Source: Alphaproteobacteria bacterium
GTDB taxonomy: Bacteria > Pseudomonadota > Alphaproteobacteria > JAAEOK01
Direction: 5' to 3'
DNA length: 64,000 bases
Assembly (NCBI GenBank): GCA_024244705.1
Contig: JAAEOK010000042.1
Coordinates: 88,764-152,763 of the forward strand
Shown: positions 361-60,135 of the stretch, in pieces
Position numbering within the stretch: position 1 is the stretch's first letter
Layout of the letters: every line of letters starts with the position of its first letter
Notes under the pieces: generated by a model
The model's database searches: none
What the model was told of the DNA's origin: nothing
Seen by the model: the letters and a program-made list of their open reading frames with translations, nothing else
Program-made: the position numbers and the translations under genes

Positions 361-372
361 TCGATACCGGCG

Positions 373-1512: not shown

Positions 1513-1554
1513 GAGCTGTTCTGCCTCATGTTGAACCCCCCGACCAACCCACGC

Positions 1555-2166: not shown

Positions 2167-2195
2167 GATCAAACGGATCTTGCGCGCGTCGAGGC

Positions 2196-2963
2196 TCAAC
2201 TGAGGACCTTCTTGAGGTCTCTCAACGTTGCACGATGGGTGAGATCCAGGTGCAGCGGCGTAACCGCGATGGCATTCCGTTCGATCGCGGCTAGGTCGGA
2301 CCCCTTGCGCGACGCCTCCTCGCGTCGCAACGGCCCGATCCAATAATAAGGACGACCGTGCGGATCGATGCGCTCCTCCAGATGATCGCCCAGTTTGCGG
2401 CGGCCCTGAAACCCGACCTCGACGCCCGACACCTTGTCGGCACTGATTGCCGGGAAATTGATGTTGATGAACACGCCCGGCGGCCACCCCGTATCGATCA
2501 GTTTATGCAGGAGCTCGGGCGCAAATCGTTCGGCGGTCTTCCACATCGTCGGGCCGCGCCCGTCACGATGCTGACTGAGAGCAATCGCTGGGATTCCTAA
2601 CAGGGTGGCCTCCATCGCCGCCGCCAAGGTGCCGGAATAGGTGACGTCTTCGCCGAGATTTCCGCCCCTGTTGATCCCCGCCAGAACCAAGTCGGGCGGG
2701 TGGTCGAGGAGAATGTGCTTTACCGCGAGGAGGACGCAGTCGGTTGGCGTACCGTCGACCGAATAGCGCTGTTTGGATACGCGGCGGATACGCAGGGGGC
2801 GCCGCAGGGTCAGCGAATGCGCCGAGCCGCTCTGTTCCAACGCCGGCGCCACGACCCACACGTCGTCGCTAAGACCTCGCGCTATCCGTTCCAACAGCTT
2901 CAGCCCGCTCGAATCGAAGCCATCGTCGTTGGACAGCAGGATTCGCCGGCCCGTCGACGTCAT
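2196..2963 (-). CDS. surE: 5'/3'-nucleotidase SurE
   Basis: N-terminal [14 protein letters not shown] and conserved SurE core. Located upstream of pcm as in the canonical operon. Confidence 0.9.
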
Positions 2964-4240
2964 ACGGAGACCGCCCCCAAGCGCTCGAGTCCGCCCATAT
3001 AAGGGCGGAGAACCTCCGGAATGACCACTGACCCATCGGCCTGCTGATAGTTTTCGAGTACGCCAATGAGCGCCCGCCCGACGGCGATCCCCGACCCATT
3101 CAACGTGTGAACGAATTGGGTGCCTTTGCCACCCGTCGGGCGGAACCGGGCCTTCATGCGGCGAGCTTGGAAATCGCCACAGTTGGAACAGCTGGAAATC
3201 TCACGAAAAGTGCCCTGTCCGGGCAACCACACCTCGAAGTCATGGGTCTTGCGGGCGGCGAATCCCATGTCGCCGGTCGACAGCACGACGACGCGATAAT
3301 GCAGATCGAGCCGCTTCAGAATTTCCTCGGCGCAGTTGGTCATCCGATCCAACTCCGCATCCGACTCGTCTGGATGAGCGACACTGACCAGCTCGACCTT
3401 GTAGAACTGGTGCTGGCGCAACATGCCCCTGGTGTCCTTGCCGGCGGCGCCGGCCTCGGAACGGAAACAGGGAGTATGCGCGGTTACCCGAATCGGCAGA
3501 TCGGCGGCGTCCAGGATTTCACCCGCCACCAGATTTGTCAGCGGGACCTCGGCGGTCGGGATCAGCCAATGGTCCGTGGTGGTGCGAAACTGGTCGTCGG
3601 CGAATTTTGGCAGTTGCCCGGTGCCGAACAGGGCGGTGTCGCGGACCAAAATCGGCACGCTCATTTCCGTATAGCCGAATTCATTGGTGTGAACGTCGAG
3701 CATGAACTGGGCCAGCGCGCGCTCGAGGCGGGCGAGCGTTCCGCGCATGACGACGAACCGGGCACCGGCGAGCTTTGCCGCAACGTCGAAATCCATCAGT
3801 CCGAGCGCCTCGCCGATCTCGAAATGCTGCTTTGGGGCGAAATCGAACGCCGGTGCTTCGCCGTGCCGTCTAACCTCGATATTGGCGGTTTCGTCACTGC
3901 CAACGGGGACGTCGGCGGCGGGCAGGTTGGGCAGGCCCTGAAGGATCTCGTCGCATCTCGCCTGCGCCGCTTGGACCTCGACGTCTTTGGCCTGCATATC
4001 GGATTTGAGCGCGGCGACCTCGGCCATGAGTGCCGCCGCATCCTCACCGCGCGCCTTGGCGGCACCGATCTGCTTCGACGCCTCATTGCGACGCGTCTGC
4101 ATCTCCTGGAGCGCGGTGACGAGTGCGCGATGGTGCGCATCGATCTCGAGCACGACGGCCGATTGCGGCATCAAGCCCCGTTTGACCAGCCCCTCATCGA
4201 AGGCTTCGGGGTTCTCGCGTATCCATTTGAGATCGAACAT
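2960..4240 (-). CDS. serS: serine--tRNA ligase
   Basis: N-terminal [12 protein letters not shown] with coiled-coil tRNA-binding arm. Class II aaRS core motifs ([24 protein letters not shown]). Start chosen at the internal Met (position 4240) rather than the ORF-track extension. ATGA overlap with surE. Confidence 0.9.
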
Positions 4241-4327
4241 GACAGGTGTCGTGCTGGCGGTTGGTCGGCGGTCGCGGGCGTTATAAGCCTTGCCGCCGAT
4301 GGCGTCCAGCACACGACGATAACAGCT

Positions 4328-5131
4328 TTAGGCTTCTTCCTCCGCCTCCCGCTCGGCCCGCTTCTTCTCGACGATGCGCGCCATCAGGATCGATATCTCG
4401 TAGAGCACGATGATCGGCAGCGCGAGCCCGACTTGGCTGATGATGTCCGGCGGGGTCAGAATTGCCGCGGCAACGAATGTGCAGACGAGTGCGTACTTAC
4501 GCTTGGCGGCGAGCCCGTCCGCGCTGACGATGCCAACCCGCGCCATCAGCGTCAAGGCGATCGGCAATTGGAAACTCAGACCGAAGGCGAAGATCAGCCG
4601 CATCACCAGCGACAGGTACTCGTTGACCTTGGCTTCGAGTTGGATCGGCAACGAGCCGGGACTTACGTCGGTGGTTTCGAAGCCGAGGAAGAACCGCCAG
4701 GCCAGGGGTATCACAAGGTAATAAAGCAAGGCGCCGCCGGCAAAGAAAAGCACCGGTGTGGCGACCAGGAATGGCAGGAAGGCGCGGCGCTCGTGCCGAT
4801 AGAGGCCGGGCGCGATGAACATCCAAACCTGGCTGGCAATAATCGGAAAGGAAATGAAAATGGCGGCCCAAAAGGCGACCTTGACATAAGTGAAGAAGGC
4901 CTCATGGAGCGCGGTGTAAATCAACCGCCGGTTTTCCTGCCCCTCCATTGCATCCGCCAACGGCTGGACCAGGAATCCGTAAATTTCGTCGGCGAAGTAA
5001 TAGCAGAAGAGAAAGGCGATGAAGATCGCCGCCACCGAGTACATCAGCCGATTGCGCAACTCGATCAAATGATCGAGCAATGGCATCTTCGATTCTTCGA
5101 TGCCCTCGATTTCGGCCAGCTTTTCGCTCAC
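4328..5131 (-). CDS. tatC: twin-arginine translocase subunit TatC
   Basis: Six-TM TatC profile (LIELRNRL..., FLPFLVATPVLFFAGGALLYY). GTG start at 5131. Confidence 0.9.
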   Translation of the reverse strand: MSEKLAEIEGIEESKMPLLDHLIELRNRLMYSVAAIFIAFLFCYYFADEIYGFLVQPLADAMEGQENRRLIYTALHEAFFTYVKVAFWAAIFISFPIIASQVWMFIAPGLYRHERRAFLPFLVATPVLFFAGGALLYYLVIPLAWRFFLGFETTDVSPGSLPIQLEAKVNEYLSLVMRLIFAFGLSFQLPIALTLMARVGIVSADGLAAKRKYALVCTFVAAAILTPPDIISQVGLALPIIVLYEISILMARIVEKKRAEREAEEEA

Positions 5132-5136
5132 TGTCC

Positions 5137-5406
5137 AGAGCCCTTTCTATGAACTCGGAGCCATTCTGACGGAGCGGTTTTGGCCGTCGGGCAGGAGCGA
5201 GGAGCGATGACATGCCGGAGCATATCGAGCGACGAGCGACGCTCACGGCGGGCAAAAGCGCTCGTCCCGTAGGGTTTCCATCCGGCGGCCGACCACGGCG
5301 TCAGCAAGCTTGCCCGATGCTTCGGCATCGCGCTGCTCGAACTTCCTTGCGGACCGGCGCGCCGGATGCGAAACAGAATTGACTCGGGGTTCATAGAAAG
5401 GGCTCT
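5137..5406. mobile_element. 270-bp MITE-like non-autonomous element, copy A (imperfect terminal inverted repeats AGAGCCCTTTCTATGAAC ... GTTCATAGAAAGGGCTCT)
   Basis: About 92% identical to the reverse complement of 29893..30162. Terminal inverted repeats of 17-19 bp seen directly. No transposase ORF. Lies between tatB stop and tatC start. Confidence 0.6.
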
Positions 5407-5851
5407 AGGTTCCGGTCTTGACGTCGGCGCTCGCGACTGAGGCCACGTCCTTCGGTTCGGAATCCGGCTGGTCGGCGTTCGCGACTGAGGCCACGTCCTT
5501 CGGTTCGGAATCCGGCTGGTCGGCGCTCGCTCCTTCGGACGTATTCGAATCACCGTCGGGGATCTTGATCGGCTGCATCGCCTCCTTGATCGACCCGGTC
5601 GGGTCGATCGTGTTCTCGATCTCCTTCTTGATATCGAGCTGGCGCGTGGCATCGAGCTGCTTTTTCATTTCGTCGAGCTCGGTTTCACGGATCATGTCGT
5701 CAAGACCGCGTTGAAAGTCGCGGCCGATCGCGCGCACCTTCCCCGCCCACTGGCCGACCGTACGCAATGCGCGCGGCAAGTCTTTGGGACCGATGATGAT
5801 CACCGCGACCACGATGACCACCAGCATTTCTGTCCAGCCGATATCGAACAT
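5405..5851 (-). CDS. tatB: twin-arginine translocase subunit TatB
   Basis: N-terminal MFDIGWTEMLVVIVVAVIIIGPKDLP TM plus amphipathic helix typical of TatA/B. Long acidic tail. Sits between tatA and tatC. The stop codon TAG spans the junction with the MITE end. Confidence 0.8.
   Translation of the reverse strand: MFDIGWTEMLVVIVVAVIIIGPKDLPRALRTVGQWAGKVRAIGRDFQRGLDDMIRETELDEMKKQLDATRQLDIKKEIENTIDPTGSIKEAMQPIKIPDGDSNTSEGASADQPDSEPKDVASVANADQPDSEPKDVASVASADVKTGT
5433..5528. repeat. perfect-but-one tandem duplication, 2 x 48 bp, inside the tatB 3' coding region (encodes ADQPDSEPKDVASVA[N/S] twice)
   Basis: Direct inspection: gcgactgaggccacgtccttcggttcggaatccggctggtcggcgttc followed by the same 48-mer ending ctc. 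Confidence 0.85.
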
Positions 5852-6215: not shown

Positions 6216-7301
6216 TTAATGTGGCTCTTCCCGCGAAAAAACAAAGGCTTGATCGACATCCAAGTCGATACCGACGATTTCATTCTCCTGGGGCAGAAAC
6301 TTGCCGGGCACGCGGCTGTGAAGGTGGAGCGATGGCCCGCCTTGCTGGAAAATTTCGAGATGTATCAGGCTGCTACGTCCGATAATACGCGATTCCAGCA
6401 CTTTGGCAGGATACTCCGGACCGCCGTCAGTGACCCGGCTCATACGAATTGCTTCGGGCCGTATCAAGATATCGACCGCCGTACCTTCGGCCAGTCCATC
6501 GCTCGTGATGGTGCCGACCGCCGTGGCTACCCGGCCGTCGGCAACGACGCCCTCGATGCTATTCACCTCGCTGAAGAACTCGGTGACGAAAGCCGAATTT
6601 GGATGAAAATATATCTCGATCGGTGTTCCGATCTGGGCCAGCCGACCGTTTTGCATGACGGCGATTAAATCGGCCATGAACATCGCTTCCTCGGGATCGT
6701 GGGTCACCATCAATGTCGCCGCCTCGCTATCCTTCAACACATGGAAAGCTTGGTCGCGAACTTGCTCCCTGAGACGCTGGTCCAAGCCCGAAAAAGGCTC
6801 GTCCAGCAGCATGACCTTTGGCGATGGCGCCAACGCCCGGGCGAGCGCCACCCGCTGTTGCTGCCCACCGGACAGGGTGTGGGGATAGGCAGCGGAATAA
6901 TCGAGCATGCCAACCTGGTCGAGCACGTCGTCGACACGCGCCTTGCGTTGTGCGGCGGCAATCTTTCGTAATCCGAAAGCGACATTGTCGGCGACGGAGA
7001 GATGCGGAAACAGGGCGTAGTCCTGGAACAGCATTCCGACGCCCCGCTCCTCCGGCGGCAGCAGATGACCGGGTCCCGCCACTTCCCGGCCGCCGATCAT
7101 GATCCGTCCCGATTGCAGGTCCTCGAGCCCCGCTATGAGCCTAAGCAGAGTCGTCTTGCCGCACCCCGACGGTCCAACCAAACAAACCACTTGCCCAGGC
7201 GCCACCGCGAGATGAACGTCATCGGCCGCGACGATGTCGCCGTATCGATGGTCGACGTTTTCGACCACCAAAGCCGGATGGCGCGAATCCAGCTCAGCCA
7301 T
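6216..7301 (-). CDS. ABC transporter ATP-binding protein, Fe3+/spermidine-type importer ATPase (FbpC/PotA-like)
   Basis: Walker A GPSGCGKTT, signature LSGGQQQRV, Walker B LLDEPFS. C-terminal TOBE-like domain. Start at the internal Met (MAELD...) overlapping the permease stop by 8 nt. Confidence 0.8.
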   Translation of the reverse strand: MAELDSRHPALVVENVDHRYGDIVAADDVHLAVAPGQVVCLVGPSGCGKTTLLRLIAGLEDLQSGRIMIGGREVAGPGHLLPPEERGVGMLFQDYALFPHLSVADNVAFGLRKIAAAQRKARVDDVLDQVGMLDYSAAYPHTLSGGQQQRVALARALAPSPKVMLLDEPFSGLDQRLREQVRDQAFHVLKDSEAATLMVTHDPEEAMFMADLIAVMQNGRLAQIGTPIEIYFHPNSAFVTEFFSEVNSIEGVVADGRVATAVGTITSDGLAEGTAVDILIRPEAIRMSRVTDGGPEYPAKVLESRIIGRSSLIHLEIFQQGGPSLHLHSRVPGKFLPQENEIVGIDLDVDQAFVFSREEPH

Positions 7302-11270: not shown

Positions 11271-12281
11271 TTAGCCCAAAAGGTCGGCCAGCGCCGCGGA
11301 AGCCGCTGCAACGTCGAAATCGGCCGCAGCCCCGATCAGCCGTGTCCCACGCTCGTAGCGTTCCCATCCCGCAGCGCCGAGTTCCGGGCATTCATCGGCG
11401 ATCTCGCGCATTTCGGTCAGATCTCCATTGCAATGAAGAATCACATCGCAACCGGCGGCAAGACTGAGCCGGGTACGATCGGCCATCGAACCGGCGAGCG
11501 CACCCATGCTGAGGTCGTCGGTCAACAGCAGACCGTCGAATCCGATTTCCCGGCGGATGACTTCTTCGATTACGACCTTGGAGAGGGTCGCCGCCATGGT
11601 CGGATCAAGCTGCTCATACAGGACATGCGCGGTCATCGCCCAAGGCATGTCGCGCAGCGCCTGAAACGGCACAAAATCAGTCTCCGCGAGCGCCGCCCTC
11701 GACGCATCGACGCGGGGCAGGCTCTTGTGACTGTCGGCCCGCGCCCGGCCATGCCCCGGTATATGCTTGATCACCGGCGTGACGCCCCCAGCCATCAGCC
11801 CTTCGCATGCCGCGCGCCCCAGTTCCGCGACGACCAAGGGATCGTCGCAATAGGCCCGGTCGCCGATGATGTCATGGGATCCCGCGGCCGGAATGTCGAG
11901 CACGGGCAGGCAATCGACATCGATGCCGATCGCCAGCAACTCGGCGGCAAGGAGGCGCGCGTTCAAACGAACCGCATCTTTGGCGCGGTCTTTATCGATT
12001 GCCGCCAAGCGGCCAAAAACGGCCGCCGCAGGAGCATCCCGCCAATGCGGGGGAGACAGCCGCTGAACCCGGCCGCCTTCCTGGTCGATCAGGACCGGGG
12101 CCCTGGAACGGTCGATGCATTCGCGCATGGCGAGTGTTAGCGCAGCGACCTGTTTCGGGCTTTCGCAATTCCGCGCGAACATAATGAAACCGAGCGGCGA
12201 CACGCTGCGGAAGAACGCCTTTTCTTCCGAGGTGAGTTCCAAACCGCCGCACCCGAAGATGACCGCTTTCGGCCTAGCCAT
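11271..12281 (-). CDS. nagZ: beta-N-acetylhexosaminidase (GH3, NagZ)
   Basis: GH3 NagZ signatures (KHIPGHGRARADSH, LLTDDLSMGA). Confidence 0.85.
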   Translation of the reverse strand: MARPKAVIFGCGGLELTSEEKAFFRSVSPLGFIMFARNCESPKQVAALTLAMRECIDRSRAPVLIDQEGGRVQRLSPPHWRDAPAAAVFGRLAAIDKDRAKDAVRLNARLLAAELLAIGIDVDCLPVLDIPAAGSHDIIGDRAYCDDPLVVAELGRAACEGLMAGGVTPVIKHIPGHGRARADSHKSLPRVDASRAALAETDFVPFQALRDMPWAMTAHVLYEQLDPTMAATLSKVVIEEVIRREIGFDGLLLTDDLSMGALAGSMADRTRLSLAAGCDVILHCNGDLTEMREIADECPELGAAGWERYERGTRLIGAAADFDVAAASAALADLLG

Positions 12282-12282
12282 G

Positions 12283-13083
12283 CTAACGCCGCACCACGAG
12301 ACACCCGACGTTGCGTTGGGTCAACACGGCACACAACCGTTTCCCTTCGGCCTCGGTGGCAATCGGACCCGCTTGAACGCGGTAGTAGACGCCCTTATCC
12401 TCGCCGAGATCGATTTTCTGGATTACCGGCTCGAGGTCCGCCAGGACATCATAGTGCTTGCCAATCAGGGCGTCCCAAGCCCCAGCGGCGGCGGCCGGCG
12501 ATCGCATCGAAGCGAGCTGCAGCCGAAACGGCGAAAGATCGAATTCGGCGCCCTGTTGGGTCGACCCGTCGACGCTCGCCGTTTCGGCGGCGCCAGACTC
12601 GGCAACGACCGGCGGCGGTGGCTTGGCACCTGGCGTGCTCGGAATATCTTCATTCGCTGTTTCGGTCGTCGCGGGCGGGGTCGCTACCGGTGGAAGGGTA
12701 CTCGACTCCGGCTGGGCCAACTCCGGCATGGGTTTGGGACGGCGTGTGATGATTGGCTCTTCCGGGCCCGGCCCAAGCTGCGCTTCCTCTTCCTTGGCCG
12801 GACCGGGTGCGATCTTGCCGTAGACCAAGGTATCGCGATAAGGCACTTCCATGCCGCCCGGTGCCTCGGGGCGGACTTTGATCGGCTTCGCGTCGGCGGT
12901 GATTACCGGCGCCACGCTTTCGCTGCCATAGCGGATACCCTCGGTATAGGCATACCACATTCCGATACCGAACCCCGCGAAGACGACGAGTACGAGCACG
13001 CCCACCCATACCCGGCGGCGGCGAGGTCTTTCCTCGAACGTAGTTGGTTCCCCTGCGTGATCGTCAAAATCCTCGGACGTCAC
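12283..13083 (-). CDS. SPOR domain-containing protein (septal peptidoglycan binding), single TM, Pro-rich linker
   Basis: C-terminal SPOR-like segment ([11 protein letters not shown]...YYRVQAGP). N-terminal [25 protein letters not shown] start at 13083 overlapping the argS stop (GTGA). The ORF-track 317-aa extension would overlap argS. Confidence 0.6.
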
Positions 13084-14834
13084 CGCATCTCCTCCACGGG
13101 CGTCACGTCGAACACCTCCAGACCGGACGCGATCACGATGGCCATCGCGCGCACCAGGGCCATTCGCGCCAGTGTCGCCGGCATGTCGTCCGCCTTCACG
13201 AATCGCAGGCTGGCATCGTCCCTGCCCTTTGTCCATAGGTGGTGGAAGGCGGCGGCAAGATCATACAGGTAGAAGGCCAAGCGATGCGGCTCATGCGCCT
13301 CGGCGGCGGCCTCGAGTGCCCGCGGCCAGGTCGCCATCGCCTTGACCAAGGCCATCTCCTCTGGCGATCCGAGCGGCGACAAGTCGACGCCGGCCAGCGC
13401 CGCGTCTGATAGGTCGGCGTCGGGAAAGGTTTCGCGCGCCTGACGCATGACGGAGCAATGCCTGGCATGGGCGTATTGCACATAGAATACCGGGTTGTCC
13501 CGGGATTGTTCGGTGACCTTCGCCAGATCGAAGTCCAATGGCGCATCGTTTTTCCGGGTCAGCATGATGAACCTGATGACATCCTTGCCGACCTCGTCGA
13601 TCACGGCGCGCATGGTGACGAAGGACCCGGCCCGCTTCGACATCTTGATCGGCGCCCCGTTGTCGAGCAGGTTGACCATCTGGCAAATCTTGACGTCGAG
13701 TTCGGCTTCCCCGTCCGATACCGCGGCAACCGCCGCCTTCATGCGCTTGATATAGCCCCCGTGATCGGCGCCCCAGACATCGATCATGGCGCGGAAGCCG
13801 CGCCGGTACTTGTCGTAATGATTGGCGATATCGCTGGCGAAATAGGTCCACGAACCGTCCGATTTCCGGAGCGGCCGGTCGACATCGTCGCCGAATTCCG
13901 TCGCCCGGAACAAGGTCTGCGGTCGCGGCTCCCAATCTTCCGGCGCTTTGCCCTTCGGCGGTTTCAGCACGCCGGTATAGATCAGGCCGCGGTCCTGCAG
14001 GGCGGCCAACGCCGCGTCGACGGCGCCTTCGTCTACCAATGTGCGCTCGGAGGTAAAAACCTCTTGGCGAACGCCGAGCGCCGCGAGGTCGTCTCGAACG
14101 AGATCCATCATCGCCGATATGGCGAAATCACGGACAACCGGGAGCCATTCCTGCTCGTCGACATCGCGCCATTTATCGCCGTCGCGCGCCGCCAGGGCCC
14201 GGCCAACAACTTCGAGGTAGGCGCCCGGATAAAGGCCCGACGGGATGGTGCCGATATCCTCGCCGAGCGCTTCCCGGTACCGAAGATAAGCCGACCGGGC
14301 CAGGGTATCGACCTGGCTGCCGGCGTCATTGATGTAGTACTCGCGGGTGACCTTATGGCCGGTTTTTTCGAGCAGCGCCGCCAACACATCGCCAAACACC
14401 GTTCCTCGCGCATGGCCGACATGGAGCGGACCGGTCGGATTGGCGGAAACATACTCGACATTGACCAGGGCCCCGCCGCCCATGTCGGACTCGCCGTAGG
14501 CGGTCCCCTCGCGCAATATGATTTCGAGCTCGTGCAGCCACACCGAGGCCGCGACCCGCAGATTGACGAACCCGGGGCCGGCGATTTCCGCTTCCACTAC
14601 ATTGGGCAGCGCACGGCAACGCTCGACAATCATCGCCGCCAGATCGCGCGGTTTCATGCCGGCCTGCTTGGCTAAGACCATGGCGGCGTTCGTCGACAGG
14701 TCGCCATGGGCGGAATCGCGCGGCGGCTCGACCGTCACGCGCCCCACGTCGAGGCCCGCCGGCAAAATGCCATCACCCGCCAATTCTTCAAGTATCAACA
14801 GAAGATCTTTATTGAAATTACTGAAAACAGACAT
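13080..14834 (-). CDS. argS: arginine--tRNA ligase
   Basis: Class I aaRS HIGH-type motif ([12 protein letters not shown]), KMSKR motif ([10 protein letters not shown]), C-terminal anticodon-binding DALR region. Start at the internal Met MSVFSNF... Confidence 0.9.
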
Positions 14835-52438: not shown

Positions 52439-53604
52439 CCGGAAGCCGTGCCCTCCGCGTCGGCTTGAAGTGGGAACGGTTCGGCCTCGCCCATCGGCCA
52501 TTTCTCCACATAAACCGACTGGGATGGAAACGCGAAGCCGGAACCGGCGCCTTCGACTATTGTTTTGATCTTGAATGCGAAATCCTGCTTGACGTCGAGC
52601 CATTCCGCCCAGTTTGTCGTCTTGGTAAAGCAATAGATCATAATATTGATGCTCGAATCGGCGAACTCGTCGACGAAAACCAGGGTCGACACCCGCTCCG
52701 GATCCGTCTCGAACGCATCGGTGTCGTGAATGTGGTCGCGGATCTGGTGCACGATCGTGCGGAGTTGGTCCTGTGTGGTCCGGTATTCGACGCCGACCTT
52801 CCAGTAAATGCGGCGATTCGTCATTTTCGAGTAGTTGATGATCGGCTCGTTGGTTAGCAGACTGTTTGGCACCGTCACCAGCGCCTTGTCGAATTGCCGG
52901 ACGCGGCTCGCAATCAAGCCTATCTCCTCGACGACGCCCTCTAGGTGGCTGGTCTGAATCCAATCGCCACGATCGAAAAGCTTGTTCATGAAGATCATGG
53001 TGCCGCCGAAAAGGTTGGCGATCATGTCCTTGGCACCGAGCGCGAACGCCATGCCGGCCAGACCGAGACCGCCCAAGACGGCGGCCACGTTGAACCCCCA
53101 TTCCTGCAGCACGGCCGCGATGCCCAAGATTACGATCAACACTTTGAGTATTTTTACGGCAAACGCGTGCAAGGTCTCCTGCGCCGTCAATGGCGTTCCC
53201 AATTGCGCCAGGACCCGGTCGATAAGGTAGGAAAACGGCTCCACCATCAGGAACAGAGCCCAGAATATGGTGAAAATTATCAGCACACGGATCAGGCTGT
53301 GGACCCAGTCCCCGGTATCGACCGAGCCCGACACGACCTGGACCGCCACGTACAGGCCGAGAACGAGAAACGCGAACTGAACCGGCTTTTCGAGAGCATC
53401 GACGAACATGTTGTCGATTCTGGTGGACGTTCTATCCGCCAACCGACGCATCGCCTTGAGGATCACTCGGGTAAAGAATCCGCGGGTCACCGAAAACAGG
53501 AAAAAGACCAAAACCGCGGCAAGAATCGGACCCAAGCTGACCCCGAAGACACCGGCTTTCCAGACCAATGCGACCTGCTGCCAGAATCCTTCAAGAATAT
53601 CCAT
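52435..53604 (-). CDS. mechanosensitive ion channel family protein (MscS-like)
   Basis: MscS TM3-like GLGLAGMAFALGAKDMIANLFGG plus beta-domain. Start at MDILEGF. Confidence 0.8.
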   Translation of the reverse strand: MDILEGFWQQVALVWKAGVFGVSLGPILAAVLVFFLFSVTRGFFTRVILKAMRRLADRTSTRIDNMFVDALEKPVQFAFLVLGLYVAVQVVSGSVDTGDWVHSLIRVLIIFTIFWALFLMVEPFSYLIDRVLAQLGTPLTAQETLHAFAVKILKVLIVILGIAAVLQEWGFNVAAVLGGLGLAGMAFALGAKDMIANLFGGTMIFMNKLFDRGDWIQTSHLEGVVEEIGLIASRVRQFDKALVTVPNSLLTNEPIINYSKMTNRRIYWKVGVEYRTTQDQLRTIVHQIRDHIHDTDAFETDPERVSTLVFVDEFADSSINIMIYCFTKTTNWAEWLDVKQDFAFKIKTIVEGAGSGFAFPSQSVYVEKWPMGEAEPFPLQADAEGTASG

Positions 53605-53825
53605 CACATCACCCAAAAAAACACGGCGCGAGGTTGCGTCGGGCTGTACAATCGAGGCGACGTGTGAATAATCGTTTTTGCCCGTGGCCGCAACACGCGG
53701 CCGTTCCTGCAGCACGAGCCAGACGTTGCCCTTGTCACGAATTTGTCCCACCGAAGGGGCAAACTCGCTTGATAGGGCTAGTCTGTTCTATCACCAGAAC
53801 GGCGATTTCTAGGCAGGGGACCCGT

Positions 53826-54350
53826 ATGTTCAATAAGTCAAAGCAAAACAACAGCGAGCCCGCAACTCCGCGGCCCGCAGTACCCGAATCGACACCAACG
53901 ACGAAAGCGGAAAGCCCGGCCCCGGCACCCAAGCCGGTGGCCAATGTTGCTTCGGCATCGTCGATTATCAGTGCGGCGCTTAACGTCACCGGCAACCTTG
54001 ACTGTGCCGGCGACATCGAGATCAAGGGCACCATCGATGGCGACGTTAAGGCCCGCAACGTGCGTATCGACGAAAGCGGAAAGGTAAAGGGCAAGATCGT
54101 CGCCGATTCGGCGTATGTCGATGGCACGGTGCGTGGCCAAATTGTGGCCAAGAACGTGGCCTTGGCGGGATCGGCAAATGTCCGTGGCGATATTCTTCAC
54201 GAGTCGCTGTCGATCGAGGCTGGCGCTTTCCTCGATGGCAACTGCCGACGCCTGAAGGAGGCTGACCAAGCGGCCGATCAGCCGCAGAAGGAAAGGAAAG
54301 AGCCGGCGAAGCCGGCGGCAACAAATATGGCTGCCGCACCCGCAGGTTAG
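53826..54350 (+). CDS. bactofilin family cytoskeletal protein
   Basis: Beta-helical repeat signature (NVTGNLDCAGDIEIKGTIDGDVKA..., KGKIVADSAYVDGTVRGQIVA...). Pro-rich N-terminus. ATG at 53826. Confidence 0.75.
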   Translation: MFNKSKQNNSEPATPRPAVPESTPTTKAESPAPAPKPVANVASASSIISAALNVTGNLDCAGDIEIKGTIDGDVKARNVRIDESGKVKGKIVADSAYVDGTVRGQIVAKNVALAGSANVRGDILHESLSIEAGAFLDGNCRRLKEADQAADQPQKERKEPAKPAATNMAAAPAG

Positions 54351-54478: not shown

Positions 54479-54952
54479 ATGAACACGCTCGCAAAACGAT
54501 CCACGACACTCGCCACCGCCGTGATTGTGCTTGGCGCCGTGACAGCCTGTCAGAATGTCGGAACGAAGACGCAAGTTGGTGCCGCGGGTGGCGCCGCCGC
54601 TGGCGGCCTGCTGGCAGCGGCGACCGGAACCGGGGCGGCCGGCATCGCCGCCGGCGTTCTACTCGGCGGCCTCGCCGGCGGCGCGATCGGCAACATGCTC
54701 GACCAGCGCGACCAGGAAATGGCGGCGCAAAGCACCCAGCAAGCCTTGGAGAGCGGCCAGACCGGTCAACAGACCCAGTGGGTGAATCCGGACAGCGGCC
54801 ATAGCGGTACCGTACAGCCGACCCGCACCTACCAGACGTCGAGTGGACAGTACTGTCGCGACTTCCAGCAGACAGTCACGGTCAATGGCCGGACCGAAAC
54901 CGCCACCGGCACCGCCTGCCGGCAGGCCGACGGTACCTGGCAGGTCGTTTAG
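54479..54952 (+). CDS. lipoprotein with glycine-zipper (Gly-zipper_2TM) region and 17-kDa-surface-antigen-like C-terminus
   Basis: Lipobox AVTAC. GxxxG-rich segment AAGGAAAGGLLAAATGTGAAGIAAGVLLGGLAGGAIG. Confidence 0.6.
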   Translation: MNTLAKRSTTLATAVIVLGAVTACQNVGTKTQVGAAGGAAAGGLLAAATGTGAAGIAAGVLLGGLAGGAIGNMLDQRDQEMAAQSTQQALESGQTGQQTQWVNPDSGHSGTVQPTRTYQTSSGQYCRDFQQTVTVNGRTETATGTACRQADGTWQVV

Positions 54953-54997
54953 GGAGGGCCGGGAGCAGCTGGCGCCTCCTTGCCGGTAACTGCCGGT

Positions 54998-55045
54998 CCC
55001 CAATCTCAGATTTGGGGATGTCCTGTGCGATTTCGGGACATCCCC
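54998..55045 (+). promoter_or_regulatory. two interlocked stem-loops (CCCCAAT..ATTTGGGG and GGGGATGTCC..GGACATCCCC) between the lipoprotein gene and the CHASE2 cyclase gene. Terminator or 5' regulatory structure.
   Basis: Perfect 10-bp inverted repeat plus an adjacent 6-7-bp inverted repeat sharing the GGGG. No U-tract. Confidence 0.3.
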
Positions 55046-55084
55046 AATTCGTTCCGTTGACACCCAAGCAGCCAAAATAGGGCC

Positions 55085-57307
55085 ATGCGACGCTGGCACG
55101 GCATCGTTGTTGGTCTGCTGATCCTTGCCGCCGGGGTCGGCGTCCGGTTTCAAGATCCGGAGCCGTTGCAGGCCCTAAGGCTCATGGTGTTCGGTGCCTA
55201 TCAGCGATTGCAGCCGCGGATCTATCAGCCGGCGCCGGTACGTATCATCGACATTGACGAGGAAAGCCTGCAGCGTCACGGCCAATGGCCGTGGCCGCGG
55301 ACCGTGATCGCGCGCCTCATCGACAGGTTGAGGGATAGTGGCGCGGCAACCATCGTTATGGACATCGTGTTTGCGGAAGTTGACCGCACTTCGCCGATCC
55401 AGGTCGTGCGTTCCCTTCCCGACCTCGAAAAGCGCGCCGCCATTTTAAGCGCGCTGCAAGACATCGACCTGCCCGACAACGACGACGTATTGGCCAAGGC
55501 CATCGTACCGGGTGGCGTGGTGACCGGATTCGCGCCCATAAACAGGCCCTCGCCCTTGCCGAACCGCGTCACGACATTTGCCTTCGTCGGAGCGGATCCG
55601 CTTCATTTCGTGCCGGCCTTTGGCGGCGCCATCGTCAACCTTCCCGACCTCGAAAAATCGGCGGCCGGGAACGGTGCCATCTATGCACAATCCGATGTCG
55701 ATGGGGTATTTCACCGACTGCCCTTATTCGTCAATATTCGCGGCGAGATGTACCCGTCGCTGGCGGCCGAAGGGCTGCGCGTCGGTCAGGGTGCCGCCAC
55801 CTTGATGTTGCGGTCATCAGACCAGCGCGATCTTGAGAGCCTCGGCACCGCGGCCGGGATTTCGAAAGCCAAGATCGGCGCGTTCGTGGTGCCGACCGAC
55901 CCCAACGGGCGTATGTGGCTCTACGATACGGGTCGTGTGCCGGAGCGCACAATTCCTGCCTGGGAGGTCCTCGACGGAAACTTCGACCCCTCGCGCGTCG
56001 AGGGCATGATTGCGGTGGTCGGCGTTTCGGCGGAAGGTCTTTCGGACGTTGTCGCCACGCCGCTCATTCCGAGAGCGACCGGCGCCGAGCTCAATGCGCA
56101 GGCGATGGAACAGATCCTGCTCCAAGATTTCCTGCAGCGCCCGCTTTGGGCCAAAGGCGGCGAGGTTCTGTATCTTATCCTGCTCGGTCTCGCGCTCACC
56201 ACCGCTTTCCTGGTCGACCGCTTCGGTGCCGTGATGTCGACGGTGCTCGGCGGAGTATTGGTCGCCGCCGGGGTAGCAATCAGCTGGTGGGCCTACGCGC
56301 AGCACGGACTGCTTCTCGATCCGGTCTATCCGGTTCTCATCGGCACGGCGATCTATCTGTCCAATTCGATCATGAAATACATCGTCAGCGAGGCACAGCG
56401 GAAGGAGGTGCGCGGAGCCTTCAGCCAGTATGTCGCGCCGGCGCTGGTCGACGAGCTCGCCCGCAACCCGTCTGCCCTCAAGCTGGGTGGCGAAAATCGC
56501 CAGATGACCGTCTTGTTCTGCGATGTCCGCAATTTCACCGCCATCTCCGAACAGCTCGATCCCGAGGGGCTGACGCACCTGCTCAATCGCTTTCTCACAG
56601 TGATGACACGCCTGATCCTGTCGCGCCGCGGCACCATCGATAAATATATGGGTGATGCAATCATGGCGTTTTGGAATGCTCCGCTGCCGGACCAGGACCA
56701 CGTTCGCAATGCCTGCGCTACGGCCTTGGCAATGGTCGGTGCATTGCCCGATTTTGACGAGGAATTGAAGGCCGATACCCAGTACAACGGTTTCGATTTC
56801 GGCGGTTTTCGGTGCGGGATCGGTCTCAATACCGGGCCCTGCCTGGTTGGCAACATGGGCTCGGAGCAGCGCTTCGATTATTCCGTCCTCGGCAATACGG
56901 TAAACATGGCCTCGCGCTTCGAGGGGCAATGCAAGACCTATGGGGTCCCCATCATTGTTGGTGAAAGCACCCACGATGAAGTGACGGATTTCGCAATGCT
57001 GGAGCTCGATCTCGTTCGCGTCGTGGGAAAACGCGAAGCGACCCGCATCTTCGCCCTGCTCGGCGACGATGAGACCGCGCGAACGGAACACTTCGAAAAC
57101 CTCCATCGAGAACATACAGCGTTGCTTTCGGCATACCGGCAACAACATTGGGACATCGCTCAAAAACAGCTCGAAATTTGCCGCCGGCAGATGGGTGAAA
57201 TCGACCTCGGCGGTCTCTACGATCTCTACCTAGACCGATTGGTGGCGTATATGGCGGAGCCGCCCGGTGCCGATTGGGACGGCGTCTTCGATGCAAAAAC
57301 AAAGTGA
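55085..57307 (+). CDS. CHASE2 sensor domain-containing adenylate/guanylate cyclase (class III)
   Basis: N-terminal TM plus periplasmic CHASE2-like region, 3 further TMs, C-terminal cyclase domain (VLFCDVRNFT, YMGDAIMAFW, GLNTGPCLVGNMGS, TVNMASRFEG). Confidence 0.85.
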   Translation: MRRWHGIVVGLLILAAGVGVRFQDPEPLQALRLMVFGAYQRLQPRIYQPAPVRIIDIDEESLQRHGQWPWPRTVIARLIDRLRDSGAATIVMDIVFAEVDRTSPIQVVRSLPDLEKRAAILSALQDIDLPDNDDVLAKAIVPGGVVTGFAPINRPSPLPNRVTTFAFVGADPLHFVPAFGGAIVNLPDLEKSAAGNGAIYAQSDVDGVFHRLPLFVNIRGEMYPSLAAEGLRVGQGAATLMLRSSDQRDLESLGTAAGISKAKIGAFVVPTDPNGRMWLYDTGRVPERTIPAWEVLDGNFDPSRVEGMIAVVGVSAEGLSDVVATPLIPRATGAELNAQAMEQILLQDFLQRPLWAKGGEVLYLILLGLALTTAFLVDRFGAVMSTVLGGVLVAAGVAISWWAYAQHGLLLDPVYPVLIGTAIYLSNSIMKYIVSEAQRKEVRGAFSQYVAPALVDELARNPSALKLGGENRQMTVLFCDVRNFTAISEQLDPEGLTHLLNRFLTVMTRLILSRRGTIDKYMGDAIMAFWNAPLPDQDHVRNACATALAMVGALPDFDEELKADTQYNGFDFGGFRCGIGLNTGPCLVGNMGSEQRFDYSVLGNTVNMASRFEGQCKTYGVPIIVGESTHDEVTDFAMLELDLVRVVGKREATRIFALLGDDETARTEHFENLHREHTALLSAYRQQHWDIAQKQLEICRRQMGEIDLGGLYDLYLDRLVAYMAEPPGADWDGVFDAKTK

Positions 57308-57400
57308 TCCAGGTCACTGATATTTTTCGGTTGCGGTATTATGCTCTGTCAGTCATGTGGTAACGTCTAACCGGCGACAAGCCAAACAAGACAACAGCCC

Positions 57401-58756
57401 GTGTCAACGAAGATGTACTTACAATATACAAATATCCGACGTCTGATCGTCATGATGTCTGTTGTCGGCGTCCTGACCGCTTTCCATCCGGCCACGGCCG
57501 AGAGCAACGAATCGCTCGAAGCGGAATACGATCAACTGTTCCGAGAATTGCTCAGGCAACCCAACGATTTGGATAACATGGCGCGGTTCGCCTATGTGGC
57601 GACGCAGCTTCGGAACTACGAGGCGGCGATCCAGACCTTCGAGCGGATGCTGCTGATCAACCCCAACCTGCCGACCATAAAGTTGGAGATTGGCGTTCTT
57701 TATTATCGTCTCAAGGCCTATGACACCGCCAAAGTATATCTGGAAGACGCGCTCACCGATCCGGCAATGCCGCCGATTTCGCGGGCTCGCGCCCAGCGCT
57801 ATCTCGACGAAGTCGATGAACGCGTTGCCGCCTCGACGTTCAGCGGCGCGGTACTGGCCGGAATCCGCTATCAGGACAACGCCAATGCGGGACCCGACGG
57901 TCCGTTCATCTTGTCTGGCGGTTTTCCGGCGATGATACCCACAGGATTTCAGCCGACCGACGATATCAACGGCTTCGTGTCCGGACGGGTGCGCCACCGC
58001 TACGACCTGGCGACGCCGTTGGACGAAGCATGGGTGACCGACGCCGAATTCTACGGCACCGCCCAAGTCGATCTCGACCAGTACAATGTCGGATTCATGG
58101 AGCTGCGCACGGGTCCCCGTATCGCCGTCCTGCCGCAGAGCGTCGATACCCTTTTCGTTCGACCCTTCTTCATCTCGAATGTTTCATTTATCGGTCAGGA
58201 CTTGTACGGCTATGGCTTCGGCGGCGGCGTCGACCTCGAGAAGGAATACGGCGACGATACAAAGGTCGGCCTGCGCTATATCGGGCTCTACAGGGACTTC
58301 CAAAATATTTCCGTCTTTCCCAACGATTCGGAAGACGGCGTTCAGCATCGCCTGACGTTTTGGGCCACCGATCGTCCCAACGAGGATTGGGTCCTTTACG
58401 GGCAGGTCCGCGGATTCGACGTGCAGGCGAATTCACCGCAGAACGCCTATCACCGCGTCGATGTCTACGGCCGCATCGGCTATTACTATGATGCGCCGTT
58501 CGATCTCGCCTGGCCGTGGCAGGTGTCTGTCGGCGGGTGGTACATCTATCGGGAATACGATGCCCCGGATCCGGTCGTATCGCCGTTCGTAACGCGGCAG
58601 GACGACGAATACCGAATTGCCATTTCGAACGACTTTCAGATCGATCGAGACTGGTCGATCTTCTGGCAGCTCGAGTACATCAGCGTCGATTCGAACCTGC
58701 CGAATTATACCTACGACAATCTGTCGACGTTGGTTGCCGCTCGGAAGCGATTCTAA
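57401..58756 (+). CDS. outer-membrane beta-barrel protein with N-terminal TPR region (Slam/DUF560-like architecture)
   Basis: Signal peptide. TPR-like helices (residues about 35-140). Alternating beta-strand pattern. C-terminal aromatic residue (…KRF) typical of OMP beta-signals. Confidence 0.45.
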   Translation: MSTKMYLQYTNIRRLIVMMSVVGVLTAFHPATAESNESLEAEYDQLFRELLRQPNDLDNMARFAYVATQLRNYEAAIQTFERMLLINPNLPTIKLEIGVLYYRLKAYDTAKVYLEDALTDPAMPPISRARAQRYLDEVDERVAASTFSGAVLAGIRYQDNANAGPDGPFILSGGFPAMIPTGFQPTDDINGFVSGRVRHRYDLATPLDEAWVTDAEFYGTAQVDLDQYNVGFMELRTGPRIAVLPQSVDTLFVRPFFISNVSFIGQDLYGYGFGGGVDLEKEYGDDTKVGLRYIGLYRDFQNISVFPNDSEDGVQHRLTFWATDRPNEDWVLYGQVRGFDVQANSPQNAYHRVDVYGRIGYYYDAPFDLAWPWQVSVGGWYIYREYDAPDPVVSPFVTRQDDEYRIAISNDFQIDRDWSIFWQLEYISVDSNLPNYTYDNLSTLVAARKRF

Positions 58757-58766
58757 GGAGGGCGCG

Positions 58767-59633
58767 ATGATGCTATCCAAACTTGCCACGGTGCCGTTTT
58801 GCGCCGCTGCGCTGTTGCTTGCCATCATGGGTGCGGCCTACGCCGCCGAAGTCGGTGTCACCGCCGCCGTCAATCCGAGCGCCCTGGGTACGCCGCCCGG
58901 CGAATCGACGCGCACGCTGGTCGTCGGCAATGATGTCTTCTTCGAGGAACGGATCGTCACCGAAGGCAGCGGACAGACCCAGATCCTGTTTCTCGATCAG
59001 TCGTCGCTGACCATCGGGCCGGGTTCGGATCTCGTGCTCGACGAGTTCGCCTATGACCCGGACACATCGGTCGGCAAGATGGCGATCTCCGTCACCACCG
59101 GCGTCTTGCGCTATATCGGCGGCCGGATCGCCAAACAAGAGGACGTCATTTTCACGACGCCCCACGCGACCATCGGCATTCGCGGCAGCAGCTTGGGCAT
59201 CGACACCGGCGCCGACCAGTCGATCGGCTACCGCACATCGGGGCGCATGTTCTGTGCCGACGACACGGAAGTCGTGGTGATCACCGAGGATGGCTGGGTC
59301 TGCATCATCGATGACGATGGCGTTCGCGTCGAAAAGGTGGACCCGGCGTGGCTCAAGAAATTCCTCGCCTCCTTTGTCGGCCGCGATGGCTCGCCGGACC
59401 TGCCGGAGGACGAAGTGGTCGAGAAGGTCGATGCCGAATGCGGCGCCGGTGCGCCCGTCGTCGGCGGCTTTTGCGGCGACGGCAGCCCCAAAGTACCGGA
59501 TCCGAAGGAATTCGACGACAAGGCCGAGGTCGAACAGTTCATTCAGACCGAATTGGACAATAACCTGGAGCCGAACGACGACATCCCGCAGGATTGCGAA
59601 GTCTGCAACTACGACGTCGATCAGATCCAATAA
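58767..59633 (+). CDS. FecR domain-containing secreted protein with acidic C-terminal tail
   Basis: FecR-like core (VVGNDVFFEERIVTEGSGQTQILFLDQSSLTIGPGSDLVLDEF). Signal peptide. Strong RBS AAGGAGG upstream of the ATG at 58767. Confidence 0.6.
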   Translation: MMLSKLATVPFCAAALLLAIMGAAYAAEVGVTAAVNPSALGTPPGESTRTLVVGNDVFFEERIVTEGSGQTQILFLDQSSLTIGPGSDLVLDEFAYDPDTSVGKMAISVTTGVLRYIGGRIAKQEDVIFTTPHATIGIRGSSLGIDTGADQSIGYRTSGRMFCADDTEVVVITEDGWVCIIDDDGVRVEKVDPAWLKKFLASFVGRDGSPDLPEDEVVEKVDAECGAGAPVVGGFCGDGSPKVPDPKEFDDKAEVEQFIQTELDNNLEPNDDIPQDCEVCNYDVDQIQ

Positions 59634-59676: not shown

Positions 59677-60135
59677 CTATCGCATATCCGGATAGTTGTT
59701 GGGCCCCGGGTTCCACATCCCACGGCGCGCGTCGCGGGCTTCGATTTCAGTGTTTCGATAGACCGCGTCGGCGGCGTGGGCCCAGCCCGTATAGACCATG
59801 CCGTAGGACAGGTCATAGCCGTTCGCCAGGCAGCGCGCGACAACCGGACCCTGATCGGCGACCTCGATGGCCCGACACTCGACCACCGCACCGGCGGTCA
59901 AATCGAGCAACTGGGCGCGTGCAATGCGCCCACAATCGCGGTCTTGACCTCGAACCGTACAAATCTCACCCGGAACCGGCACGAGGATGCCCGCCAAGCG
60001 GAATGCCGTACCATCCAGATCGACGGTCTGGCCATCGATAACGACCAACGCTTGCGCGTCGGCTCGTTCCGCGGGAAACGCGGACCAACTCAAGATCAGG
60101 CAGATTCCGACAGCCGGCCATCGCAGCATCGCCAT
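59677..60135 (-). CDS. thermonuclease (SNase-like) family protein, secreted
   Basis: Signal peptide. SNase-like spacing of conserved Arg/Asp/Glu (VIDGQTVDLDG...RLAGI..PE) and C-terminal RRGMW. Confidence 0.6.
   Translation of the reverse strand: MAMLRWPAVGICLILSWSAFPAERADAQALVVIDGQTVDLDGTAFRLAGILVPVPGEICTVRGQDRDCGRIARAQLLDLTAGAVVECRAIEVADQGPVVARCLANGYDLSYGMVYTGWAHAADAVYRNTEIEARDARRGMWNPGPNNYPDMR

Follow-up and report, generated by a model that had tools for sequence, protein, structure and literature searches.

A conserved gene trio for a CHASE2 adenylate cyclase, a Slam-family outer-membrane protein and a FecR-fold protein in Alphaproteobacteria

CHASE2 is among the commonest extracytoplasmic sensor domains. 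To our knowledge, CyaK/CyaD of Sinorhizobium meliloti is the only CHASE2 system with genetics, and it is dependent on the outer-membrane protein NsrA. NsrA (SMb20775) is required for the perception of an external protein signal by CyaK (PMC7529298, PMC13001267). Its gene lies upstream of cyaK and codes for a single polypeptide of 1190 amino acids with a FecR domain (residues 66-160), TPR repeats (residues 400-590) and a barrel. In the same bacterium the CHASE2 cyclase CyaD1 has as neighbour SMc02177, a short (~295 aa) extracytoplasmic FecR protein; the two genes are convergent, and no gene for a Slam-like barrel adjoins smc02177. SMc02177 is a cAMP/Clr-activated target and perception of the plant shoot signal does not require it, which points to an output rather than an input role, and smc02177 is needed for control of secondary infection (PMC5498481). 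A Burkholderia operon also combines a secreted FecR protein with a CHASE2 sensor, but there the FecR protein carries LysM, the output is a histidine kinase with a response regulator and no barrel gene is present (PMC5192318). The FecR-CHASE2 pairing is therefore independent of the output domain.

In type 11 secretion the entire cargo is carried to the cell surface or into the medium. Known systems (PF04575) are Slam1-TbpB/fHbp, HrpB-hemophilin and NilB-NilC; the secretin has an N-terminal TPR domain of ~140 aa followed by a 14-strand barrel, the cargo gene is directly adjacent, a C-terminal barrel is the unifying feature of the cargo, and soluble, unlipidated cargo is known (PMC8406197, PMC12282271). 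An N-terminal domain of FecR fold lies outside the cargo architectures described in these two papers, and neither FecR-type cargo nor a link to CHASE2 was found in them.

The window analysed here is a stretch of 64,000 nucleotides from contig JAAEOK010000042.1 of an alphaproteobacterial metagenome-assembled genome. The original prediction placed in it three closely spaced genes of the same strand, coding for a CHASE2 cyclase, a TPR and barrel protein and a FecR protein. The three open reading frames are found where it had put them (Table 1), and its domain calls are right for all three proteins (Pfam CHASE2, Guanylate_cyc, TPR and FecR). The cyclase gene is separated from the barrel-protein gene by 93-144 nt and the latter from the FecR gene by 10 nt. 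The same prediction regarded the FecR-CHASE2 pairing as functionally unexplained, which overlooks the genetic studies of NsrA-CyaK and SMc02177-CyaD1 (PMC7529298, PMC5498481).

Table 1. Features identified in the interval and the evidence for each
Feature	Position	Strand	Evidence
Glycine-zipper / 17-kDa-antigen lipoprotein gene	54479..54952	+	157 aa, lipobox VTAC; Pfam 17kDa_Anti_2 1.5e-10, Gly-zipper_Omp
Stem-loop 1 of double hairpin	54956..54999	+	RNA fold
Stem-loop 2 of double hairpin, 14-bp stem, weak U tract	55012..55047	+	RNA fold
Receptor adenylate cyclase (predicted), 740 aa	55085..57307	+	Pfam CHASE2 5e-49, Guanylate_cyc 4e-22
Slam / type 11 family outer-membrane protein (predicted), 451 aa	57401..58756	+	TPR matches, AlphaFold2, family SlipAM
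FecR-fold protein, short form, 288 aa	58767..59633	+	Pfam FecR 1e-6, AlphaFold2, Foldseek

The cyclase matches CHASE2 over residues 15-370 and Guanylate_cyc over residues 472-652. By its hydrophobic segments (4-22, 359-377 and 381-403), the CHASE2 domain lies on the periplasmic side, giving the order transmembrane segment, periplasmic CHASE2, transmembrane bundle and cytoplasmic class III cyclase domain. The nearest solved structures are Pseudomonas aeruginosa CyaB (3r5g) and Cya2, to which the protein was aligned through FCDVRNF, DKYMGD and GNTVNMASR. The motifs FCDVRNF, DKYMGD and FDYSVLGNTVNMASR are all intact and the set of class III residues is complete, with the two metal-binding aspartates, the substrate lysine and the transition-state asparagine and arginine. 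The lysine of DKYMGD, which is a glutamate in the guanylate cyclase Cya2, indicates specificity for adenine. The first gene of the trio encodes an inner-membrane class III adenylate cyclase whose catalytic residues are all in place and whose CHASE2 sensor lies in the periplasm. Over the cyclase domain it shares 47-48% identity with CyaK, which matches the CHASE2 profile at 1e-68; CyaD1 is 38.6% identical to the window protein over 92% of its length.

The start of the barrel-protein gene is uncertain, the candidates being GTG 57401, ATG 57413 and ATG 57452, and the public annotation gives a product of 434 aa. The protein features a signal peptide, a predicted periplasmic TPR domain (~37-142) and a predicted 14-strand barrel (145-450). 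TPR_9, TPR_1, TPR_2 and TPR_19 match at residues 45-131, and in the AlphaFold2 model (pLDDT 92.7) six helices span 37-142 and 14 long strands follow between 145 and 450. The Slam/DUF560 architecture proposed for it is borne out by the family consensus, for which SlipAM is the best barrel family (27.4 bits for a gathering score of 22, E 3.1e-6). SlipAM is matched by 26 of 70 homologues (best 1.3e-7) and TPR_Slam by 37, and several matches carry a precomputed PF04575 annotation. The window protein itself, however, is too divergent to match SlipAM (PF04575/DUF560): the full-length sequence gave no match at E <= 0.01, nor did the isolated barrel at E <= 10. Sequence comparison thus assigns it to Pfam SlipAM/DUF560 (Slam, type 11 secretion) at family level only. 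A profile search of PDB sequences returned only TPR proteins, and a Foldseek search of the PDB with the model returned generic barrels (BcsC, CymA, FadL, porins), with no Slam structure among the matches. Relatives of the protein occupy about 500 places in contigs sampled at one genome per species, and a second paralogue, P0020, is encoded in the same metagenome-assembled genome.

FecR genes recur beside both partners. The co-occurrence with CHASE2 cyclases that had been predicted is found in all eight inspected plasmid-record loci of cyclase homologues, which include S. meliloti cyaK/nsrA and cyaD1/smc02177. Among 80 genome loci of the barrel-protein family, a FecR gene adjoins the barrel-protein gene in 56, nearly always directly downstream; 43 of these 56 have no CHASE2 cyclase gene within 8 kb. 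The cyclase gene is present as well in 13 of the 80 loci, so that all three genes co-occur as had been supposed, in four different orders and across orders of Alphaproteobacteria. The cyclase, barrel-protein and FecR genes are the only ones common to all 19 loci with the trio. Other shared clusters proved to be antisense shadow ORFs or generic ABC ATPases. The trio is best read as a conserved three-gene envelope-signalling module, recurrent in many alphaproteobacteria. At loci where the barrel-protein gene has no FecR partner, ORFs of 450-700 aa lie upstream; they belong to no Pfam family and may be spurious.

Most FecR partners of the barrel family are long. A TbpB/fHbp/NHBA-type eight-strand barrel forms the C-terminal domain common to 58 of 60 long partners; its profile finds NHBA (3e-7), fHbp (1e-5), LbpB and TbpB in the PDB, and 14-15 of 48 members match Pfam TbpB_B_D or FHBP_C. 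All long partners have signal peptides of the signal peptidase I type and no lipobox. Type 11 cargo shares both traits: its C-terminal eight-strand barrel is of the TbpBBD / lipoprotein-C type, and lipidation may be lacking. The presence of a type 11 cargo barrel in these relatives indicates that the barrel/FecR pair descends from a secretin-cargo pair. The locus and its relatives hence connect CHASE2 sensing with the family of type 11 secretion through FecR proteins built like type 11 cargo; for type 11 systems beyond host-associated bacteria they add a class of cargo and perhaps a function in signalling. The window differs from described type 11 loci in its association with a CHASE2 cyclase instead of TonB or haem genes, and in a FecR protein that has no cargo barrel.

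The FecR gene starts at 58767 and not at 58617, the TTG codon of the mechanical ORF, in agreement with the public annotation (P0121), the position of the ribosome-binding site (RBS) and the N-termini of orthologues. Its AAGGAGG RBS overlaps the TAA stop codon of the barrel-protein gene, an overlap that implies co-translation; from this arrangement the FecR gene is read as translationally coupled to the barrel-protein gene. The product is predicted to be Sec-exported and non-lipidated, its mature form starting at the FecR fold right after a cleavable signal peptide. The FecR fold (28-190) is followed by a cysteine-containing helical, acidic tail. The AlphaFold2 model has pLDDT > 90 over residues 30-200, and its top Foldseek matches are the anti-sigma factor 4m0h and PupR (6ovk_R), at E ~1e-6 and an rmsd of 3-3.8 A over ~145 columns.

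This protein and its seven orthologues lack the cargo barrel. Its profile finds nothing in the window, so that no remnant of such a barrel was detected 3' of the FecR gene or at any other place. The absent cargo domain is the one point, and the only one, that would suit a chance adjacency in which the short FecR gene is a decaying pseudogene. This is highly improbable: the eight short orthologues (274-290 aa, 49-59% identity) have intact frames, four invariant cysteines and signal peptides, and the trio occurs in four gene orders across orders of the class. The short form is genuine. The lineage of the window lost the cargo-targeting barrel and all three genes stayed conserved, which makes the short-FecR lineage a natural experiment in FecR-CHASE2 function apart from export.

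The FecR fold recalls the FecA-FecR-FecI and PupB-PupR systems. The periplasmic fold is the same (6ovk_R, 4m0h), and a comparable logic, from outer-membrane protein through FecR domain to inner-membrane transducer, may be inferred for the window. In contrast to those systems, the window FecR protein has neither a cytoplasmic anti-sigma domain nor a transmembrane segment, and the predicted output is cAMP instead of the release of a sigma factor. No sigma-70 or TonB-receptor domain was found in the products of neighbouring genes, and there is no ECF sigma factor or TonB-dependent transducer nearby.

NsrA-CyaK offers a functional parallel. Both loci have a CHASE2 class III adenylate cyclase beside FecR, TPR and outer-membrane barrel domains, which recur next to CHASE2 cyclases as separate genes; the parts fused in NsrA are split over two genes in the window. 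The NsrA barrel (~590 residues) has no detectable homology to the 14-strand SlipAM-type barrel and the FecR domains are distant (BLAST 4e-4; profile 1e-3). True homology between NsrA and the barrel protein was accordingly rejected: BLASTP gave TPR matches only, and the barrel-family profile scored NsrA at -0.5 bits, aligning no more than a TPR stretch. The analogy hence rests on shared domain types and not on descent.

A trans-envelope relay gating cAMP synthesis, with an inferred mechanism, is tentatively preferred here, on the composition of the three proteins, the recurrent barrel/FecR pair, its link to the cyclase and the NsrA precedent. The short FecR protein would stay in the periplasm and would link the outer-membrane protein, at its TPR domain, to the CHASE2 domain of the cyclase, such that an event in the outer membrane or at the cell surface might change cAMP synthesis. 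The barrel and FecR proteins could then be a two-polypeptide functional analogue of NsrA, and the FecR protein the putative partner sensed by CHASE2, as originally suggested. The established mechanism of type 11 secretion argues against such a relay, since export of the whole cargo would separate the FecR domain from CHASE2. The locus and its relatives provide concrete candidate partners for CHASE2. A wider proposition is rather doubtful: that CHASE2 sensors in general have FecR-fold proteins as periplasmic partners or as ligands presented to them, that the large alphaproteobacterial Slam branch signals and does not serve nutrient capture, delivering or holding FecR-fold proteins so that surface events are relayed to cAMP synthesis, and that the relay of the window is purely periplasmic.

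The barrel protein could instead be a functional type 11 secretin, with the FecR protein as its cargo or effector acting downstream of cAMP; the adjacent cyclase would then control the expression or activity of both through cAMP, or would only be co-regulated with them. The secretin-cargo anatomy of the family (SlipAM membership and the cargo barrel of the long partners) fits this arrangement, as do the soluble, unlipidated cargoes of type 11 systems (PMC12282271, PMC8406197) and the cyclic-nucleotide-binding effectors that adjoin the module in Paracoccus and Ensifer. SMc02177, the experimentally studied relative closest to the window FecR protein (same subfamily, profile E 1.7e-26), also favours it, being activated by Clr/cAMP and dispensable for signal perception (PMC5498481). 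Yet export of FecR by the barrel, another element of the original prediction, suits only the relatives that keep the type 11 cargo barrel, and the window protein and its seven orthologues have none. Moreover, the intergenic regions of the module contain no CRP/Clr-type palindrome: TGT-N10-ACA boxes are absent from its spacers, and the six in the window equal chance expectation. Two phmmer queries, a weak test, found no cyclic-nucleotide-binding protein in the window, and NsrA genetics put a protein with FecR, TPR and barrel on the input side (PMC7529298). An output role of the FecR protein is considered unlikely.

Still less probable is a coupling of FecR and CHASE2 alone, with the barrel serving other cargo or an unrelated role and kept adjacent through operon inertia. 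FecR genes do pair with CHASE2 cyclase genes without such a barrel protein in S. meliloti (cyaD1), R. jaguaris, Ruegeria and Methylosinus, of the barrel protein the Ensifer PDNC004 locus retains just a TPR remnant of 105 aa, and the genome of the window has the paralogue P0020 as well. Within the short-FecR clade, however, the barrel protein is full length, gives a high-confidence model, keeps all family-invariant residues and, at 45-63% identity, equals the FecR protein in conservation. The implied co-translation of the two genes also speaks for a joint function, and the arrangement is kept in five or more of the sampled genomes (that of the window, L086, L088, L089 and L090) at ~40-50% protein divergence.

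The first 474 bases of the interval are a fourth gene that the original prediction missed and that codes for a lipoprotein (Table 1). The orthologous loci L088 and L089 carry this gene in synteny, every other locus with the trio lacks it, and it is a neighbour outside the conserved core.

Between this gene and the cyclase gene lies the structured double hairpin (54956-55047) noticed earlier in front of the latter. The structure is real: the segment 54950-55090 folds at -66.9 kcal/mol (z = -4.33), and none of 200 shuffles folds as well. Its simplest reading, however, relates it to the overlooked lipoprotein gene upstream. A riboswitch or attenuator was discarded, as no Rfam family matches (the sole hit being a chance mir-632 on the opposite strand) and the orthologous spacers of L088 and L089 do not conserve the sequence. 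The second stem-loop is absent from the list produced by a consensus terminator scan. The double hairpin is probably, and this stem-loop especially, the intrinsic terminator of the lipoprotein gene; L088 has at the same position a plain terminator, with a canonical GC hairpin followed by a T run.

The CHASE2 cyclase, the barrel protein (an outer-membrane protein with TPR repeats and a beta-barrel) and the FecR gene, together called the trio, form a system that combines two known kinds: a signalling module like that of NsrA and CyaK, and a secretin-cargo pair of type 11 secretion (Slam family, Pfam SlipAM/PF04575/DUF560). The type 11 papers PMC8406197 and PMC12282271 appear to contain no description of the link that joins type 11 proteins, at family level, to FecR-fold cargo and CHASE2 cyclases. 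The original prediction described three same-strand genes between 54479 and 59633; the common strand is borne out but the genes number four, the first coding for a lipoprotein. As a whole that reading is largely right, its corrections being this fourth gene and SlipAM membership, which holds at family level only.

Coordinates of the module, its flanks and neighbouring genes in compared loci (handles beginning with L are loci around homologues of the barrel protein or the cyclase)
Feature	Record	Coordinates	Strand	Profile match
Bactofilin	window	53568-54350	+	Pfam 4e-24
Lipoprotein, 157 aa, lipobox VTAC, glycine zipper	window	54479-54952	+	17kDa_Anti_2 1.5e-10
Spacer with double hairpin	window	54953-55084		
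CHASE2 / class III cyclase, 740 aa	window	55085-57307	+	CHASE2 5e-49 (residues 15-370); cyclase domain 4e-22 (472-652)
Barrel protein, 451 aa, TPR repeats at N-terminus	window	57401-58756	+	
FecR-domain protein, 288 aa	window	58767-59633	+	
Convergent gene, 152 aa	window	59677-60135	-	NCBIfam PRK06518-type, weak (3.7e-6, far under cut-off)
Neighbour genes of module	L001 (Shinella)	1857-5646, 12019-13245		
Neighbour genes of module	L004 (Ensifer)	1-5803		
Neighbour genes of module	L003 (Paracoccus)	1215-3041		
TPR protein, 105 aa	L004 (Ensifer PDNC004)	6468-6782	-	
TonB/ExbB/ExbD set	L093 (Ruegeria)	1470-4451		

The FecR start is set at 58767 because the public annotation (protein record P0121), the amino termini of orthologues and the ribosome-binding site concur; the mechanical ORF starting at TTG 58617 is overlong. 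The ribosome-binding site reads AAGGAGG and shares bases with the TAA stop of the barrel-protein gene. A convergent gene, 43 nt past the FecR stop codon, bounds the module. The product of this gene has an apparent signal sequence, and L088 and L089 each carry a counterpart of 151-152 aa in the corresponding place, which shows that it is conserved in the clade. Synteny with the lipoprotein gene and module in these two loci extends upstream to the bactofilin gene. Its mechanical ORF has a long Arg/Pro-rich amino-terminal extension, so that the true start is probably an internal Met near residue 87.

The structured double hairpin predicted ahead of the cyclase gene is present as two strong stem-loops (z = -4.3). 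The spacer has no Rfam family, the hairpin shows no sequence conservation in orthologous spacers, and in L088 this place is taken by a textbook terminator; the element is most simply read as the terminator of the lipoprotein gene. It is not listed by a consensus terminator scan, and its U tract is weak.

Hydrophobic segments at residues 4-22, 359-377 and 381-403 of the cyclase bracket the CHASE2 domain, which is thus assigned to the periplasm. By alignment, the closest solved relatives of the catalytic domain are Pseudomonas aeruginosa CyaB (3r5g) and the Cya2 family. The motifs FCDVRNF and MGD, which hold the metal-binding Asp residues, and GNTVNMASR are retained, as is the Lys of DKYMGD, a site occupied by Glu in the guanylate cyclase Cya2. 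With these residues kept, the protein should be an active, adenine-specific enzyme.

The AlphaFold2 model of the barrel protein, built on 70 homologues (pLDDT 92.7), places six helices of TPR type (37-142) behind a signal sequence and ahead of 14 long strands (145-450). This predicted architecture is the same as that published for DUF560/type 11 proteins, a TPR domain of ~140 amino acids at the amino terminus followed by a 14-strand barrel (PMC8406197). The proposed DUF560/Slam assignment stands for the architecture and for the homologue family, whose consensus scores 27.4 bits against SlipAM (gathering score 22), but not for the window protein alone, which has no Pfam SlipAM match. SlipAM is matched by 26 of the 70 homologues (best 1.3e-7) and TPR_Slam by 37. 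Comparison with solved structures returned generic barrels only and did not place the family. A paralogue (P0020, GY791_06395; 38% identical) is encoded on the same contig outside the window, ~90 genes away.

Relatives of the barrel protein occur at 501 places in contigs taken at one genome per species. Among the best 80 of these 501, a FecR homologue is found in 56, almost always directly downstream of the barrel-protein gene (upstream in L035 and L082); 24 loci have none, four of them with almost no downstream sequence. About 20 barrel-family loci lack both FecR and cargo-barrel genes in their surroundings (L017, L020, L022, L024, L027-L029, L031, L036-L038, L041, L043-L045, L049, L061, L067, L069, L076) and may form a subfamily with some other cargo. 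Upstream ORFs of 450-700 aa in these loci have no Pfam match and may be spurious.

Most FecR partners are long, with ~400-1170 aa, and 58 of the 60 with at least 380 aa have in common a ~165-aa carboxyl-terminal domain. Its profile matches the carboxyl-terminal eight-strand barrels of NHBA (3e-7), fHbp (1e-5), LbpB and TbpB, which are neisserial surface lipoproteins, and 14-15 of 48 members individually match Pfam TbpB_B_D or FHBP_C. Type 11 cargo, among which TbpB, LbpB and fHbp are named, has a C-terminal barrel as its common feature and need not be lipidated (PMC12282271). Given this resemblance, the barrel-protein/FecR pair is by its anatomy a putative type 11 secretin-cargo pair in which the FecR fold heads the cargo. 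FecR-headed cargo is not among the architectures listed in the type 11 papers, whose supplementary tables have FecR only as a regulatory neighbour under the significance cut-off and do not mention CHASE2 (PMC8406197, PMC12282271). In many loci, among them several from Reyranella, one barrel-protein gene is followed by a tandem pair of FecR-cargo genes (L052, L053, L058, L059, L063, L065, L084, L056, L072); the second copy in L056 is a short form of 278 aa, without barrel.

The window FecR protein is likewise short, without the cargo barrel. Its model is confident at 30-200, beta-rich at 28-190, and continues beyond 190 in low-confidence helices and an acidic tail. The top structural matches, 4m0h and PupR in the PupB complex (6ovk; E ~1e-6), are anti-sigma factors of FecR type, matched in their periplasmic domains. 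Eight short orthologues (274-290 aa, 49-59% identical) have four invariant cysteines in common. All FecR homologues examined carry a signal peptidase I type signal peptide, none has a lipobox, and the mature part begins at the FecR fold.

An assembly error as cause of the missing barrel is rejected: no remnant is found anywhere in the window, 43 nt separate FecR from the next gene, and all four related loci recovered from public assemblies (L086, L088, L089, L090; barrel protein 48-63% identical) have a FecR gene of 274-290 aa. L088 and L089 also reproduce the full order of bactofilin, lipoprotein, cyclase, barrel protein, short FecR and convergent gene. The short form is considered derived, since the closest barrel-protein relatives outside the clade (L007, L008, L030) have long, barrel-bearing partners. 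Further short forms are scattered (L002, L004, L066) and point to repeated loss of the cargo barrel.

A close homologue of the window cyclase is present in 13 of the 80 barrel-protein loci (CHASE2 profile E 1e-79 to 1e-191), all within the FecR-containing set. The trio genes occur in four arrangements: cyclase-barrel protein-FecR, barrel protein-FecR-cyclase, and the cyclase convergent with or divergent from the pair. They are the only genes that 19 trio loci have in common, and chance adjacency is excluded. Seen from the cyclase, in plasmid records, a FecR gene adjoins the homologue at all eight loci inspected, which together with the 13 trio loci upholds the anticipated recurrence of FecR next to CHASE2 cyclases. 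In Burkholderia, a LysM-FecR protein is encoded in one operon with a histidine kinase bearing CHASE2 (PMC5192318). On the strength of that operon and the eight plasmid loci, the pairing of FecR with CHASE2 is general, and a second pairing, of barrel protein with FecR, overlaps with it.

All three genes are present at the Shinella and Paracoccus cyclase loci, a TPR remnant and FecR in Ensifer PDNC004, a fused protein beside S. meliloti cyaK, and FecR only in Rhizobium jaguaris, Ruegeria, Methylosinus and S. meliloti cyaD1. A coupling of FecR and CHASE2 alone, the barrel protein being a relic or serving other cargo, finds support in these last loci and is distinctly improbable for the window; throughout the short-FecR clade the barrel protein is intact and as conserved as the FecR protein. 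The Ensifer TPR protein, homologous to the barrel-family amino-terminal domain, looks like a barrel-less remnant; its gene, divergent from that of the cyclase, adjoins a FecR gene of 220 aa.

In S. meliloti, nsrA lies directly upstream of cyaK. NsrA (1190 aa) has FecR (66-160), TPR (~400-590) and a C-terminal barrel, placed at 600-1200 in PMC7529298, and is an outer-membrane protein needed for the response of CyaK to uL2, a ribosomal protein acting as the signal (PMC7529298, PMC13001267). The same domain types are found in the window, but split over two genes; the NsrA barrel has no detectable homology to the window's barrel family and the FecR domains are distant, which rules out orthology. 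Closer to the window FecR is smc02177, beside cyaD1 (profile E 1.7e-26). This gene is cAMP/Clr-activated, restricts secondary infection and is dispensable for perceiving the plant shoot signal (PMC5498481). These data suggest the main rival reading, that barrel protein and FecR are a secretion output under cAMP control. We consider it rather unlikely, as NsrA genetics assign a protein that unites FecR, TPR and barrel to the input of a CHASE2 cyclase and the trio persists in the window's lineage although the export signal is lost.

These two points tentatively favour, somewhat short of probability, a trans-envelope relay, in which the short FecR fold in the periplasm would link the outer-membrane TPR/barrel protein with CHASE2 and this coupling would gate cAMP synthesis, a direction of information flow that we infer. 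What is established are the module's parts, the compartments predicted for them and their linkage in evolution. FecR partners also accompany CHASE2 whatever the output domain, and the FecR fold does a similar job between envelope proteins in FecA-FecR and PupB-PupR signalling.

Shinella and Ensifer have an NHLP-type system for bacteriocin export (C39 peptidase ABC transporter plus secretion protein) next to the module, and Ensifer and Paracoccus a cyclic-nucleotide-binding protein, which in Paracoccus is fused to a patatin-like phospholipase. These are candidate local effectors of cAMP, and none occurs in the window. FecR classically depends on TonB systems, and in Ruegeria a TonB/ExbB/ExbD set lies directly upstream of the FecR and CHASE2 cyclase pair, an adjacency that may be coincidental.
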